Made by a program: the position numbers and the translations under genes | Part shown: piece by piece, positions 1-13,488 of the stretch | Numbering within the stretch: position 1 is the first letter of the stretch | Layout: the number at the start of each line of letters is the position of its first letter | Notes under the pieces: model-generated | Told to the model about the DNA's origin: nothing | Databases searched by the model: none | The model's input: the letters and a program-made list of their open reading frames with translations, nothing else | DNA from: Dictyostelium discoideum | Lineage: Eukaryota | DNA: 64,000 nt | Assembly: GCA_000004695.1 (NCBI GenBank) | Contig: CM000152.2 | Location: 5,440,001-5,504,000 of the forward strand | Direction of reading: 5' to 3'

Positions 1-3028
<3,028 letters not shown>

Positions 3029-3127: not shown

Positions 3128-4214
3128 TTAATTTATTATCATATTATTATTATTATTGGTTATTGGGATATTATTTGTTATTGGAATATTATTTGAATTA
3201 TTTGGTTTTTTATCTCTAGATTTATTAATGTCATTATTTAATTTATCATACATTAATTCATCTTTTCTGGAAACGGAAGGTTTAATTTTAGAGAGAGCGA
3301 AAATGAAATCTTCCATTGTTACAGTATCTGGTTCAGTAGAGTTATTATCGAAACCACGACTAATAGCATGATTTGCTGCTTCTTTAACTAATAATGAAAG
3401 ATCAGCACCAGAGAATGAATGACAACGAAGATCGGTACCAACTTTAATTAGATCAACATCTTGGTGAATTGGAATCTTATGAGTGAGAGTTTTAAGGATT
3501 TCACATCTTTCCTCTGGTGATGGTAATGGAACATAAACCATTTTATCAAGACGACCTGGTCTACACATTGCAGCATCGATAATATCAGGTCTATTGGTTG
3601 CAGCAATTATGAATACTTCGGAACGTTTCTCTAAACCATCCATTTCTGTGAGTAATTGATTTACAACTCTTTCAGTAGCTTGGTTACCTCCACCATCACC
3701 ACCACCTCTTTTTGGGGCCAATGCGTCAAATTCATCGAAAAAGATAACACATGGTGATGATGCTGCTGCCCTTTGGAATACTTGACGTACGGCACGTTCA
3801 GATTCACCAACGTATTTATTCAAAAGTTCAGGTCCTTTAACTGATATGAAATTAGCTTGACATTCTGATGCGATTGCTTTAGCTAATAGGGTTTTACCAC
3901 AACCTGGTGGACCATACATTAAAACACCGGCAGGCGAATCAATACCCATATTTTTATATTTCTTTGGATATCTAATTGGTCTAAGAATTGAATTGGTTAA
4001 CTCCTCCCTTACACCACTTAATGCACCAACATCATCCCATGTAACATTTGGAATAGTTGCAAAACCTTCTCTTTTTGCTGCTGGTACAACTTTTTTCAAT
4101 GCTTTTTTAAAATCAATCATTTCAATATATAAACTATTCAATTTCTCTGGTTCTAATGGTTCTTTTGAAATTAATAATTCTGTTGATAAACCAATATTGT
4201 TTATATTAGTAGTA

Positions 4215-4245
<31 letters not shown>

Positions 4246-5264
4246 CACCATTTAAATTACTTGTAAATATTCTATTTACTGAATTGGTTGCTGCTTCTTT
4301 AACTAATAAATTAATATCTGCACCAACATAACCTGGTGTTAATGTTGCAATCTCTTCATAATCGAAATTATTCTCCAATCTCATCTTTGATGTAATAACC
4401 TTTAATATTTTACATCTTGCTGTTTGATCTGGTATACCTAAACAAATTTCCTTATCAAATCTACCACCAATTCTTAATGCTGTATCTAATGATTCTGGTC
4501 TATTTGTTGCACCAATTACAATTACATGTCCTTTTTTAAAATCATTTTTTTGTTGTTTATTATTATTATTTGATGCTGTAGTTGTTGTAGTTGCTTGTGA
4601 ATCAACTTCAATTATATCTTGTTGTTGTTGTTGTTGTTGCTCAGTTTGTTCATTTGGTTCATTTGTTGAATTGTTAGATGATAAATAATTTAAACTATCC
4701 ATACAAGTTAATAATTGTGATACAATTCTTCTTTCCATATCCTTTGAAGCAGATTCTCTTTTTGGAGCGATTGCATCAATTTCATCGATAAAAATGATAC
4801 ATGGTGCTTGTGCAATTGCATTGCTAAACAATGTTCTAACTCTAGCTTCAGATTCACCACTAACACCACTTGTAATTTCAGTTGCAGATATTGCAAACAA
4901 AGGTACTTTTAATTCACCTGCAATTGCTTTTGCTAATAAGGTTTTACCACATCCAGATGGACCATGTAATAAAATACCTCTTGGTGGTTCAACACCTAAA
5001 TGTGAGTAAATCTCTGGATGACAAATTGGATATTCAATATGTTCTCTAATATCTCTTAAACATGATTCAACACCACCAAGATTTGAAAAATTAATTGTTG
5101 GTATTAATCCATTACTTAAATTATTATCTTTATTATTACCATTATTATTATTATTATTTGAAAATTGGAATACATTATTACCATTTGAACTATTCTTTAA
5201 TTTCTTTTTTGGTTTTGAGTTTGGTGTATTTACATTATTTGTTGTGGTATTACTATTAATTGCA

Positions 5265-5295
<31 letters not shown>

Positions 5296-5837
5296 TTACA
5301 TTTGATGGTATATTTTCATCTCTATTTCTTTTTGCTGGTGTTGTAGTTGTTGTTGTTGGTGGTGTATTTTTAATATTTTGTTTGTATTGTGATGTTAATT
5401 GTTCATTTAAAATATTTGATGATGGTGGTGGTAGTGGTGGTGAAATTATCTCTACATCATCTCCATCTGATTCTTCCATTTTATTATCACCATCTTCGTT
5501 CTCTGATGATTCACAAGACGAAAGGTTTTTAATAATCTGGTTCATTGCTAAAAAAAAAATAAAAAAAAAACCAAAAAAAAAAAAAAATATTAATATTAAT
5601 AAACTATATAGTTTTAATAGTATATTTTGTTTTATTTTTTATTAATTATTTACCTTTTTCAACCAATTGTTTAAATCCTTTTAATGGTTTTCTGTTATAT
5701 TCCGGATAGACTTTTCTTAATTCATTTGTAATAAAATCATTGTTTAAAATATTTGACTCACTTAAATCTAATTTTTCAATTCTATCCATTAACTTTTCAT
5801 TTTCATTTTGACCAGAAGTATATTTTTTATTTACCAT
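3128..5837 (-). CDS. NVL/Rix7-like nuclear double-AAA ATPase; exons 5837..5654 and 5547..3128, intron 5653..5548
   Basis: There are two AAA modules, each with a Walker A motif (GPSGCGKTLLAKAIAGE and GPPGCGKTLLAKAIASE) and a Walker B/SRH region (IIFIDEIDA, ATNRPDIIDAAMCRPGRLD). A basic NLS-like KRNRDE...KPKKKLK lies in the N-terminal region. The upstream small ORF (MVNKKYTS...FKQLVEK) ends in G|GTAAAT. The intron ends TTTTTTTTAG|CAATG, which puts the small ORF in frame with the main ORF's ATG (phase 1: g+ca = Ala). The ELRKVYPEYNRKPLKGFKQLVEK segment resembles the conserved N-terminal nucleolar domain of NVL2. Confidence 0.8.
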
Positions 5838-6516
5838 TTTTTTATTTTTTTTATTTCTGTTGTATATTAAAAAAAAAAAATTAAAAATAAAAAACGATTA
5901 AAAAATTGCTCGTTTTTTGGATGAAAATTTATTTTATTTTTTTTTTTTTTTTTTTTTTTATTTTTTTTTTTTTTTTTATTTATTTTTTTTTTTTGATGGG
6001 AAGACTTCTAAATTATAAATAGCCATAAGAATTTTCTTTCTTTTTTTGGAATCGCAGTTGGGTTTTATTCACCTAAAAAATTATAATTTTTATAATTCAT
6101 CACCAAGAATGTTGTAATTATTATTTTTTTTATTATTTTTTTTTATTTTTTATTTTTATTTTTATTTTTATTTTTATTTTTATTTTTTTTTTGTGTTTGG
6201 TGGGTGTTGGTGTGCTGATTGGAAAAAAATTTTTAACTCATCTCATTTTGAAGATATGTTATTTTTAATTTTGGAGGGGTCAGTTAAAAAATATTTTCAT
6301 ACAATATGTTATGTTTTGTTAATTTGTAGCTGTGTGAGTGTGGCCTACAAAATAAAAAAAAAAAAATGTTTTTTTCCTATTAATTATTTTTTTCTTTTTT
6401 TTTTTTTTTTTTATCCAACATCAAAAAAAAAAAAAAAACAAATTAAAAGAACCCCTTATTGTATATCTATTTATACCATTAACGTACATAATAATTTTTA
6501 TCTTTAAAAATTTAAT

Positions 6517-6517
6517 T

Positions 6518-6589
<72 letters not shown>

Positions 6590-6590
6590 T
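6517..6590. repeat. (TTTA)n microsatellite in the intergenic region
   Basis: I see about 18 perfect TTTA units in the sequence. Confidence 0.9.
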
Positions 6591-6609
6591 TAATTATTTT
6601 TTTTTTTTG

Positions 6610-6649
<40 letters not shown>

Positions 6650-6690
6650 AATAATATTAATAATAATATTAATAATTAATATTAAAAATA

Positions 6691-8196
6691 ATGGATTGTG
6701 ATGAAATTAATTTTAAAAATGAAAATAAAAATTTAGAATTTTTATTAAATAAATATATAAATGAAATTTCAGAGCCAGCAAATTATCAACAAATTAAAAT
6801 GAGTATTTATAAATATTATGAACAAAATCATAAATCAAATTTAACTCATCAACAAAGTGAAGCGTTAAAACAAATAATCAGTGAAACTGGACCATCTGAA
6901 AGTATTTTATCAACATGTATGGATTTTAGAGTTAATTTCATAAATCAACCAAGTGAATCATGTGAAATATTTGATCCACTGAAAAAAAGAATTGCTAAAT
7001 TTCAACAATTAATAAAGGATAGCCTACAACAAACTCCAATCGAACCATTACTAAATGAATTAATTAATGGTTACAATTTATTCATTAGTCAATTGGTTGA
7101 AAGAGTAATTTATAAAGAAACTGATGGTAGTAGAAAATCATTAAGAATATTAGAATGTAATCCATTGATATTGGGTGAAGATTTAATTTATCGTGAAATT
7201 TCATTGGATAAAGCCTATGAAATTGCATCCTATAATCCAAAAGAGTATGAATATCAAAAAAAGAATGAAAATGGTACTAGTTGTGGAGGAGTTGTAAACT
7301 CTGTCTACTATAAAGTTGATAATGGTTCTCATTTACTTAGACCAGCAAAAGAGAATGCAGTTTTCCAATTTTATAAAACACTTTTCGAAACTGATAAATA
7401 TATTGTACCAACTCAACTATTGGTTATTAATCAGCTACCAATTCTTCCACCAGATATTAATGACTCTGAAGAAAGAAGAGAATTAATTAAATTAAAAGCA
7501 AGACACTGTTTAACGAATGCTCGTGATGTTTTTAATATTGATCCTCAATTAGAAAGAAGGATAGAAAATGCACTCCAACATCAAAGACCACTTTTCATTC
7601 AAGGTTCATTATTTATGGAGGGAAAAAGTTTATTTGATTTTCTATCAAATGGCTGTGGTGGTTGTAGTGGTTGTTGTGGTGATAGTGATAGTGGTAGTGG
7701 TAGTGGTTGTTGTGATAATAAAAAAAATTCAAGTCAAGTTGTAGTAGATGGTGCTTCCGATGATAGATTAGGTGGTTGTTCTAAAAAACCTATTGATTAT
7801 AGTGTTTTAGATAGAGAAAGTTTTAGTTCACACATTTTAGCAAGTTTATTATTAATGCCAACAGATTATAAAGCAGATAACTTAATTATTTCAAAGGATT
7901 CAAATATGATAGTTGGTATTGATAATGATGAATCGATGGAATGTGACGAAGTGAAAAAAGTTATCAGTAGTATTTCAAATCACGAAAGATATGATATCTG
8001 TTTAAAGAATATTTTATTTAGTTTACCATTAATGAATGAATATATTAATGAAAATATAATATCAAAATTTATGAAACATCATCCAAATATCTTTTTATTA
8101 GAATGGTTAATTAAACAATGTGAAAAAGAAATTATATATAATCAATTTATTAAAGCATCATTACCAATTAAAATTAATGATAACTCAACGACCACC

Positions 8197-8284
<88 letters not shown>

Positions 8285-11200
8285 TTTATAATGAAAAAAT
8301 AATATCAAATATAAATCAAGATTTGGGATTACCTTTTAAATTTTCACCAGGTTGGATAAAATTAATGCTTGGTAGATTTATAATGATTAAAAAAATATTA
8401 AAAGCTAGTGGTTGTAGAATGTCACATAAAGAATTATTAAAACAAATTTTACCTTTTACTGGGCATTATTATCAAGCATTGGAGAGATTAAATTCTGATC
8501 CACTTCAACAAATGGTTTCAATGTATGGTAGAGGGTTTGATTTTAAACAATTACTTTCAAATCATTTGGTTTCTGAAGATTTAGATAAAATATTTCAACA
8601 ATTGGAATCAAGAGAATTTAAAAAATGGTCACCACCAAATCAATCATTACAAGATACAATTAAAGAGTTAATACTTGAAACAAATTATGGTACTGATTCA
8701 TTCCCTTCAAATCAATATTTAATTAAATGGTTAGAGATTCTATTGATTAGGTTAAATTCTGGAATTGGATTTGGAACTAATGATAAGGAATTAAATTTTA
8801 AATATTTTGAATTACATGATTCATGGTATAAAAACAAGGAGAAAATATTTATTATCTTAATTAAAGAGGGTGCATCTGAAATTTTACTAAGAGATTTTGC
8901 AAAGATTGTTCATTTAACAATTGATGAAATTAATCAAATTAGAGATGAAGAGGTTGGTTCAATAGTTCATATTGCAATTCATTCAAATAATGCCAATATT
9001 TTATCACAATTAAAAGTTTTACAGTGTATGGGAGTTGATATCGAAGAATCTAATAGTAGTTGGTGTACACCATTAGGTTTAAGTGTACATAATAAAAATT
9101 TTGAATTATTTAAATTACTAATTGATATGGGTGCTGGTGCATTAACAAATCCTCAAAAAATCAATGACTATTATAAATCTTTATCATTGGAAAGTAGACA
9201 AGAGTTACGTCCATACCTTTCAAAGTTATCTTATGTAAATCCAAAAATAATTTGGAAGATTTCATTAGACCATATTTTCCCTTTAGTTAGTGGTTATTCA
9301 GGTCCAGCAACAGGTAATAAAGTTTTAAAAACTACATCAGAAGGTGAAAGAGTAATCTCAATTGAACATTGGCGTCAATTGTTCCATCATGATGGTTCGC
9401 CAATAAAATCAAATCCTCATGGAGCAAGATCTGTACCATTTGTAAAGAGTAAAGGATTTAGAATTTATTGTAAATTTGAACCACAATTTCCAGGTACAGA
9501 ATTAGCTGTTTCAAGATTATCAGAATTACTTTTTGGTTATTTATCACCATATAGTGAACTTGGATCAATAAATAATGTACCAGTTTTATTAACACAAGGG
9601 ATTGTTGGAGACCCATTGGTTGATATACTTTCAAAAAATTCAGAAATTTTAAATCATTTAGATCCATCAAATTTATCAAAAATTTTAGTATCTGCAATGT
9701 TATTTAATCCAGGTGATGGTAATTTAGGAAATTATATAGTTTCGCCATGTTTAAATGATACAATTGATTCTAATAATAATAATAACAATAATAATAGTGA
9801 AAATAATAATAATAATACCAAACAAATGTATAGATTAATTGCAATTGATCAAGATCAAAGTTTTATGCCATCATTTTCAAAGGATTTAGGATCAAATAAA
9901 TTATCATTACAGGTTGAAACCGTTTTGTTTCTTTTTAAACAAATGAATGATCCAGTTCACCAAGATGTAAAAGATTGTATACTTGAGAAAAATTTAGATT
10001 TAGTTTTAAATAATTGGTTAAATAATTTGAAATTTCATCATCAAGCATCAATTAATCATTTTAATAAAATTGGTGAAAGATTAAAGGATAAACAACAACA
10101 ACAAATGGAGAAAAAGACAATTATTGGTATATCATTTGCTCCTGGTATTATTCAACAACTATTTTCAAAGTTAACAAGATTACAAAATGAATTTAAAAAG
10201 AATAGAAAGAAACCAATAACTCATATTGAACTTTTAGAGATTTTGGAACCAATGATTGCAATTCGTTATAAACCATTTTTAAATGAATTCAATAATGGTC
10301 CAGAGTTTTTAATAGAAAAGTATAGAAAATTAAAAATTTCAAGTTCTCTTGAGACTTCTAATGGTGGTTATGGTAGTATTTCATCTTTGAGTAGTTCAAT
10401 CCATTCAAATTCATTCGTTTTAGAGTCTAGAGAAATTCCAAATATAAGTGAAATTCAATCATCTTTAAGATCTGGTAAATTTGGACCTGATAGAGCTATT
10501 GAAGAATTAGATATTATAAAGAAACAACAATCTACTATAAATCAAATTTTATCAGATTTGGGTCAATTAAATCATTTTATTGATGGTAGATCTTTATCTC
10601 AACCAAATTTAATCGAATCACTACAACAACCAAATTCATTAACAAATTCAGGTTCAAGAACAATAAATGCTCAAGGTATACATACAAATGGAAGTTTAGG
10701 TAGTAGTGTTGGTAATAAATTTAGTAAATTATTTGGTATGGGTAGTAAACAACCACCATCATATCAAATACCACAACCCACTACACCACCAATGGAAAAG
10801 AGAAAGGATAATTTAACCGATTGTTTATTAGAACAATTGTTAAAAGAAGTTAATTTCAAAAAATTAACACCACCTCAAGAAAAGTATTTATTGGATTTTT
10901 TGAAAACAAGTAAAGAACTTAGATTTGTATCATTAAAGGGTGCGTCAACAATAAAATATCAATTTTTTAAATCATTTATAATTAGAGCGATCGTTCGTAT
11001 GGATTTATCAGATAGTAGTATTGATTCAGTTTCACAAGTTGGTTTATTAGGAACTACTTCCTCACCTATAGTAATGCACTCATTAACTAGACTTCGTCTT
11101 GATAGATGTTCATGTTTATACATGATAAAACTAAATGCTGATGCATTAAAAGAATTAAGTTGTACTGATTGTCCAATGTTAAAAATCATTGAATTAAATA

Positions 11201-13488
11201 CACCAAATTTAGAGATTATAAATTTAGAAAATGGTTCAATCATTGATTCAAAATTTTGGGATAATCTAACTAAACAAACAAATCTTATAAAATTAAATAT
11301 ATCAAATTGTAAAACAGTTTCAAGAGAATTAACATTCACTTTTCCAAATCTATTAGAATTGATTGCAAATAAAATATCAACATTAGATAAAGTTATATTA
11401 CAATTACCAGTAGCATTATCAATTCATTTTGAAAGTTGTATAAATTTAACATCAATATCTGGTTTAACACCATCATTAAAATTATTAAATTTAAATCAAT
11501 CAATAAGTTTAATTTCAAATAATGAAAATAATAATGAAAATATTATTAATAATAGTAATAATAATAATAATAATAATAATAGTAATAATAATAGTAATAA
11601 CAATAGTATATCAACAACACCAATTAATGTTTCAAGTAATTCATTAATATCAAGTCAATCAAATTTAAATATTACATATTCATCAACATTTAAAGTAAAT
11701 GTATGTGGTGTTGATAAACATATTCAAAACTTTAGAAAAATTATAAATTCTTCTTCAAAAATTTCAACAAATTATAAAGTTGATAATATTAGAAATCAAG
11801 AATATGATTTTCAATTTTGGTATTTAGCTGAACAATGTGATAGTTCAACAACTCCACTATATCTTAAAAGCTCAAATATATTATTGTTATTATTTGATTT
11901 TTCATTAGATATTGATGGTAATGAATTTAATGAAACATTAATAATTTTCCAAAATTATATTGAAGCATGTAAATCAAATTCAATTAAACAAAGATTTATT
12001 TTATTTGGTTATGGTTATCCACCAGATTCTAAATCACTTGATTTGGTAAAACAATTTAAAGAATTAAATCAAATTGAAACCTTTGTCTATATAGCTCAAA
12101 TACTTGAAAAGCATCAACTAGAATATGTTAGAGATAGTTTATTCTCAAATTTAAGAAATGATCAATTAGAGATTTTAAAGGTTAATCATTTATATAATTT
12201 TAAAAAAAATATAGAAAAACAAGCTTTACAAGTTGTTGCAAAGAAAATACTTACCAAAGATGTATTGGTAATTGATTTATTGGATGAACTTGAAGGAATT
12301 GATTTCTCTGATATAGTATCGGATCATTTTCAAGATCATTTAGTATCAATTAATGAAATCTTTGATTTATTATACCAATTGAATAAATCATTAATTGAAA
12401 ATCATCAACAAAAAGAAGAATATGCAAAATCTATTAAAAAAGATTTCTTTAAAGTGAAAATCATTCAAAAACAACAAACTGATATGCTATCGAAATTAGA
12501 TCGTTACAAAGAAACCATTAATATTACAATGATTTTTAAAAATCTAAAAAGACTCTATTATATTGCATTAATTAAAAATATTGGTAAAGTGATTCAAACA
12601 CTTGCTCCAATTTTTTCAGATTATAAAATGGAAACTTATCAAAAGAAATACTTTGAAGATTATGAAGCTATAAACTTTTCATTCAAATCTGAATCATATC
12701 TATATAGTAGTTCCAATTCAATTAATATTACACTTTGTAGAGTTATTTGTTCAGGTTTTAATCATGCTTTTAGATGGTTTTTAGTGAAATATCCTCAACT
12801 ATTTGATGAGGCAACTTTAAATTCAAATAATTTAAACAATAGTAGTGTTTTAAGAACTTCTAGTAGTTTAGCTTTAAAAAATGAAGATAGTAGTAGTATA
12901 GAATTTCCTTATGAAAAAACACCTCTATCATTTGCTATTGATTATAAATGTTTAGAAATAATTCAATGGTTAGTTAATAATGTTATTTTATCATCAAAAT
13001 TATTAAATATTGCATTGATAAGATCAATTATGGTTGGTAATTTAGAATTGGTTACATTTTTCATTGAAAATGGTTCAGATGTTAATTGTAGTATTTCAAG
13101 TTTAGAAATGTCACCTATTCAATATGCTGCAAAGTTTAATCAAATTGAAATTGTTAAATATTTATTAACATTGGAGGGAAATAAAAAAGTAAACATTGAA
13201 AAAAAGAATAGACTAGGTTGGTCAGCAATTCATTTCGCTTCAAGAAATCAAAATCAACAAATTGTAGATTCATTATTATCAACTTCAAATGATAAATCTT
13301 TAATTAATACTCCAACAAATATAGGTGAAACTCCACTTTATTTAGCAGTAACAAAATCAATATCAATCAACCATGACTTTTGTAATTATTTAATTAATAA
13401 TTATAAACCAATTACAAAATGTCATATTGATGGTATTGTTGAAGAAATCGATATAGTTTCAAATTATTTAAATAAAATTAATACTTAA
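6691..13488 (+). CDS. Very large (2265 aa) multidomain protein: Cys/Gly-rich segment, ankyrin repeats (middle and C-terminal), a PI3/4-kinase-like degenerate segment, an LRR-like region, a degenerate Roc/Ras-like segment
   Basis: This is a single uninterrupted ORF with an ATG start and AT-rich flanks. Ankyrin repeats are visible (e.g. GWSAIHFASRNQNQQIVDSLLS...GETPLYLAV; CTPLGLSVHNKNFELFKLLIDMGAG). A CGGCSGCCGDSDSGSGSGCC cluster is present. Segment 1 is FRIYCKFEP...NPGDGNLGNYIV...RLIAIDQDQSF. Segment 2 is VNVCGVDKH...FQFWYLAEQ...LLLLFDFS. There are poly-N tracts. Confidence 0.8.

Follow-up and report, generated by a model that had tools for sequence, protein, structure and literature searches.

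The NVL/Rix7 ATPases and their N-terminal domain

The closest described relatives of the gene considered here are Rix7 of yeast and Chaetomium, an orthologous AAA ATPase acting on pre-60S ribosomal particles, and NVL2 of human and mouse. The release of Nsa1/WDR74 from nucleolar pre-60S particles is a known activity in both yeast and human (PMC6920918). Residues 10-74 of human NVL2 constitute a nucleolin-binding and nucleolar-localisation domain (PMC6662825; PMC6920918), in which the vertebrate protein carries an RRKR nucleolar-localisation motif (PMC6920918). The helicase MTR4 is bound by a different part of the protein, the W-AIM (GWFIDKTP, residues 172-179), located in an insertion of the NVL2 linker (PMC6662825; PMC6920918). 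This insertion has been described as present in chordates "but not in lower eukaryotes" (PMC6662825).

In a 64,000-nt stretch of the Dictyostelium discoideum genome (the window; contig CM000152.2, 5,440,001 to 5,504,000), region 5548-5837 is very probably (about 95%) the first coding exon and the single intron of nvl, the D. discoideum orthologue of NVL/Rix7. An initial annotation of the window had proposed that a short ORF of 63 aa on the minus strand is in fact exon 1 of this gene, spliced to an 805-aa AAA ORF. This proposal is borne out by a domain profile that spans the exon junction, by the junctions of orthologous proteins and by the annotation of a second assembly.

Structure of the D. 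discoideum nvl gene

The 63-aa minus-strand ORF (5837..5646) has the 3′ end ...GTT GAA AAA G/GT AAA TAA, in which the slash marks the splice site. The GTAAAT donor begins at 5653, one base inside the Gly codon, and the TAA (5646..5648, minus strand) lies inside the intron and closes the ORF if the intron is read through. The coding part of exon 1 (5837..5654, minus strand, 184 nt, with the ATG at 5837..5835) codes for residues 1-61 and the first base of codon 62. It is followed by a 106-nt phase-1 spliceosomal GT-AG intron (5653..5548, minus strand; GTAAAT...TTTTTTTTTTAG) with a GC content of 7.5%, against 22% and 31% in the exons. Exon 2 (5547..3128, minus strand, 2420 nt with the stop) opens with CA-ATG at 5547, the ATG of the 805-aa ORF being at 5545. 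It encodes the remainder of residue 62 to residue 867, which comprise the end of the N-terminal domain helix, a low-complexity linker and the D1 and D2 AAA modules. The ORF, donor, intron, acceptor and CA-ATG had thus been placed correctly to the base by the initial annotation.

Joining the two exons (184 + 2420 nt) gives a 2604-nt CDS for 867 aa, free of internal stops. The exon-exon junction (5654/5547, minus strand) reads ...CAATTGGTTGAAAAAG/CAATGAACCAGATT, with the flanks ...GGTTGAAAAAG on the exon 1 side and CAATGAACCAG on the exon 2 side. The product reads ...KQLVEK-A-MNQIIKN... at this point (junction peptide QLVEKAMNQIIK), the junction Ala being encoded by G+CA.

Past a TAA at 5900, the first ATG in frame is the one at 5837, which has an A-rich start context, AAAAAAATG. 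The A/T-rich region on its 5′ side (5838..5900, minus strand) consists of an oligo-T run and, between this run and the ATG, an A-rich leader, and both the run and the leader align in the genomes of two other dictyostelids (L001 and, for D. citrinum, L002). From the generalities of Dictyostelium promoters, this region is presumed to contain the 5′UTR and core promoter of nvl. A scan for bacterial-type promoters and terminators returned fewer sites than in shuffled sequence and is irrelevant to a eukaryote.

On the 3′ side of nvl, two plus-strand ORFs (18..1568 and 1796..3028, the latter with a tyrosine-phosphatase active-site motif) are apparently exons of one gene, annotated in the assembly GCA_054883475.1 with a product of 1635 aa (L006 1..6352). 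This gene and nvl face each other tail to tail, their stop codons being only about 100 nt apart. On the other side, between nvl and a divergent gene for a 2265-aa protein, window positions 5940-6190 hold A runs of great length together with a tandem tract resembling (AAAAT)n. Such sequence is typical of Dictyostelium intergenic DNA and suggests no function.

A domain profile across the splice junction

The Pfam family PF16725 (Nucleolin_bd) covers residues 5-71 of the spliced product, and its coding region (5519..5825, minus strand) is split by the intron. With the proposed splice, the match reaches 77.7 bits over profile positions 1-69 of 70, the Pfam gathering cut-off being 27 bits. Exon 1 alone scores 66.0 bits (E=2.7e-18) and stops at profile position 59, while the 63-aa read-through ORF scores 67.0 bits. 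Since the score is highest when the transcript is spliced at 5653/5548, the proposed junction completes the domain. Two alternative splices, 5653/5503 (65.6 bits) and 5663/5537 (61.8 bits), both fall below 77.7 bits and are also opposed by the orthologue junctions. Further alternative in-frame splices were ruled out by lower Pfam scores and by the same junctions. Among the in-frame GT..AG pairs of the region, only 5653/5548 removes 106 nt.

The exon matching PF16725 lies directly upstream of the AAA body, and the same pairing is found in 80+ homologues. Given this recurrent arrangement and the E value of 2.7e-18, the adjacency of exon 1 and the AAA body is, as judged by profile comparison, far beyond chance. 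Taken with comparative evidence and computational annotation, this protein homology indicates that the predicted splice 5653..5548 is real.

Conservation of the junction and of the intron

Over its first 76 residues, the spliced nvl product does not differ from a protein of Dictyostelium cf. discoideum (P0001). The orthologue models of D. citrinum, Polysphondylium violaceum and Heterostelium album have the junction VEK/VER-A-[MI]. In P. violaceum and H. album, an Ile follows the junction Ala; hence the 805-aa ORF opens with an ATG that is not conserved as a start codon.

A phase-1 intron interrupts the same Ala codon in all four of the other dictyostelid genomes (L001-L004), with lengths of 98, 173, 64 and 70 nt, respectively. 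In D. citrinum, the intron (L002 4185-4357) has a weak, non-consensus donor, GTCAGC, and the VEK-A-MNQ junction is kept. Outside the dictyostelids, Balamuthia mandrillaris (L007 1001-1850) has a phase-1 intron at the same codon (...VIER/ALPR...), and the liverwort Riccia (L008) has no intron at the site corresponding to nvl exon 1/2. Because Balamuthia belongs to the Discosea, the intron position seems, from these alignments, to predate Dictyostelia within Amoebozoa.

Compared with L001, exon 1 in the window is 97.8% identical, ungapped, with 4 synonymous and 0 nonsynonymous codon changes; the intron is 62% identical with 32 gap columns. The corresponding values for L002 are 90.2% identity in exon 1 (9 synonymous and 6 nonsynonymous changes, ungapped) and 38% in the intron (67 gap columns). 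As read from these two alignments, the divergence of exon 1 follows a coding pattern.

Fold of the N-terminal domain

The initial annotation had likened exon 1 to the N-terminal domain of vertebrate NVL2, and this likeness was recovered in two ways. The 24-residue NVL2 stretch that it quoted is present in human NVL (9bji_A) and aligns with the Dictyostelium stretch in the way that it had proposed. In addition, the profile comparison that it had suggested, with a query built solely from non-vertebrate N-terminal domains, matched the NMR structure of the mouse NVL2 N-terminal domain (2rre_A, E=1.1e-11) and residues 6-72 of full-length human NVL (9bji_A, E=3e-10). A phmmer search of the PDB with the 82-aa nvl N-terminus gave chance-level matches (e.g., EDF1 and PARP1).

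AlphaFold2 predicts four helices within residues 1-76 (10-22, 33-43, 45-49 and 52-75; pLDDT 77.6), the input being the 76-aa prefix of P0001, identical to the spliced nvl N-terminus. This predicted structure reproduces the helical fold seen in the NVL2 domain structure 2RRE, with which the Dictyostelium domain shares just 21% identity. The last helix crosses the exon junction at residues 61/62, so that exon 1 alone would give a truncated domain. In the loop before this helix, the vertebrate RRKR motif is replaced in Dictyostelium by N48-R49-K50-P51, of which R49 alone is nearly invariant among non-vertebrate homologues. With NRKP in place of RRKR, the domain need not bind nucleolin or reach the nucleolus in the same way. 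Nucleolar targeting by the nvl N-terminal domain would nevertheless be a reasonable reading of the homology.

A close, dictyostelid-like homologue (P0007, an EukProt model of 709 aa with 67% identity over the AAA body) has no Nucleolin_bd domain and begins inside the linker. Its gene model may have overlooked a short 5′ exon, the very error of which the initial annotation had warned.

The AAA body and family assignment

The spliced product is an 867-aa type II AAA ATPase with two tandem AAA modules. A Pfam search with this product finds PF00004 in two stretches, with a score of 300 bits, and two matches to AAA_lid_3. The D1 module has the Walker A motif GPSGCGKT (4940..4963, minus strand, residues 257-264) and the Walker B motif IIFIDE (4781..4798, minus strand). 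The D2 module (PF00004; 3524..3925, minus strand, residues 603-736) has GPPGCGKT (3890..3913, minus strand) and VIFFDE (3731..3748, minus strand). Placement in the NVL/Rix7 family, and not with Cdc48/p97 or other AAA proteins, is based on the names and domains of the top matches: the named ones are mostly called Rix7 (a name borne by many of the best), NVL or "ribosome biogenesis ATPase", and PF16725 is present in most of the matches listed.

Between the N-terminal domain and D1, the linker contains the motif N-x-L-N-x-x-L-x-x-x-Y (window 5384-5416, residues 106-116, NILNEQLTSQY). Related stretches recur in distant homologues, such as SNLNDSLTSSY in P0003, NLLNSTLRTSY in P0010 and NMLNSSLRNT in P0024. 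On this recurrence, the stretch looks like a conserved linear motif.

Alternative readings of the locus

The 63-aa ORF has an ATG and a stop of its own, and the ATG of the 805-aa ORF is only two bases past the acceptor; the two could therefore be separate genes, the first a small one with its own TAA and poly-A site, and the second an AAA ATPase made as 805 aa from 5545. Two AATAAA hexamers within the intron might seem to favour such an arrangement, but this hexamer occurs about 5.4 times per kb across the window, so that two copies are at background frequency and meaningless. Several observations make this reading scarcely credible. Without exon 2, the Pfam domain of the 63-aa ORF breaks off at profile position 59-60 of 70, and the predicted last helix (52-75), which spans the junction, would be truncated. 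In the homologues examined that have PF16725, the domain is always N-terminal on an AAA protein and never stands alone. Furthermore, P. violaceum and H. album have Ile in place of Met63, the proposed start of the second gene, and conservation of the intron position extends to Balamuthia.

A less radical possibility is that the 867-aa protein is accompanied by an 805-aa isoform devoid of the N-terminal domain, produced by intron retention or from an internal start. Human NVL provides a precedent, in that a short isoform without the N-terminal domain is localised differently, NVL1 being nucleoplasmic and NVL2 nucleolar (PMC6920918). The ATG that immediately follows the acceptor is conserved in the three closest Dictyostelium genomes; however, Met63 belongs to a helix, at a hydrophobic position filled by I, V, L or M in homologues and by Ile in other dictyostelids, so that ordinary structural constraint explains the conserved Met. 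Similarly, a long T-run makes up the 3′ part of the intron and resembles the one upstream of exon 1, but a T-run before the AG is a normal polypyrimidine tract, which counts against the short isoform. No observation requires the 805-aa form, and its existence is very unlikely. If it were made, by intron retention or by an internal start in the T-rich intron, the pair would be a convergent parallel to human NVL1 and NVL2, and splicing efficiency would set the nucleolar and nucleoplasmic shares of the ATPase.

Comparison with existing annotation

The initial annotation had called exon 1 cryptic and liable to be missed. It is true that a purely ORF-based caller would miss this exon, but the exon is present in the assembly GCA_054883475.1 and in four dictyostelid models (P0001, P0002, P0003 and P0006), all of which have the same junction as the spliced nvl product. 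In GCA_054883475.1 (CM142509.1), a minus-strand gene of 2710 nt is annotated at L006 6452..9161 with an 867-residue product. As 2710 - 2604 = 106 nt, the annotated span matches the proposed intron exactly. The DNA of this gene equals window 3128..5837 save for one base, in the intron (5571), and the spliced protein is identical. Hence the two-exon model is not cryptic, being already part of public D. discoideum annotation. Elsewhere in the window, the ORF 38051-39370 matches DDB_G0282167 of D. discoideum strain AX4 exactly.

The differing base, 5571, is C in the window and A in GCA_054883475.1 (plus strand) and falls in a T-run of the gene strand. The spacer between nvl and the 2265-aa gene (5838-6690) measures 853 nt in the window and 839 nt in GCA_054883475.1. 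Both discrepancies probably reflect strain differences or variation in homopolymer length between the assemblies.

Searches of the protein collection for exact 867-, 805- and 63-aa products gave no match, which is uninformative because the annotated 2265-aa neighbour (window 6691-13488, plus strand) is missing there too. UniProt presumably lists the protein as NVL_DICDI, at 867 aa, and we take Q54SY2 and DDB_G0282181 to be further identifiers of it. A literature search on Dictyostelium NVL/Rix7 found no papers.

Function of the N-terminal domain

The function that the initial annotation had attributed to the N-terminal domain, recruitment of MTR4, has to be replaced. In human NVL2, the corresponding domain binds nucleolin, and MTR4 binds the W-AIM of the linker (PMC6662825; PMC6920918), which is absent from the Dictyostelium protein together with the chordate linker insertion that carries it. 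Unlike that of NVL2, the Dictyostelium linker is an Asn/Thr-rich low-complexity sequence of a type typical of Dictyostelium. It contains no Trp, the sole Trp of the whole protein being residue 565, and neither W[FILVM][ILVM]D nor the Nop53-type AIM, LFx[ILVMF]D, occurs anywhere in the whole protein. Yeast Rix7, like Dictyostelium NVL, has no MTR4-binding motif (PMC6920918).

A scheme consistent with the gene structure and with the homologues can be proposed. Transcription of nvl would begin shortly upstream of the ATG at 5837, and the spliceosome would excise the 106-nt AT-rich phase-1 intron (5653..5548), yielding an mRNA for one 867-aa protein. Exon 1 and the first ~10 codons of exon 2 would then provide a small helical domain homologous to the "unique" or nucleolin-binding domain of NVL2. 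By homology, this domain may target the hexameric ATPase to the nucleolus or retain it there, while the D1 and D2 rings encoded by exon 2 would perform mechanical work on pre-60S particles. Nucleolar targeting and a role of nvl in 60S maturation are thus suggested by analogy with the yeast and human homologues.

The inference of gene structure is sound, but ordinary and already known, and the domain is a curated Pfam family. Its value is one of quality control, in that reading the raw sequence recovers a short 5′ exon absent from ORF lists, and a proposed splice can be tested cleanly by computation when a domain profile extends across the junction. What usefully needs correcting is the function: by homology, the N-terminal domain of this ATPase is to be regarded as a module of the nucleolin-binding and nucleolar-localisation type and not as a recruiter of MTR4.
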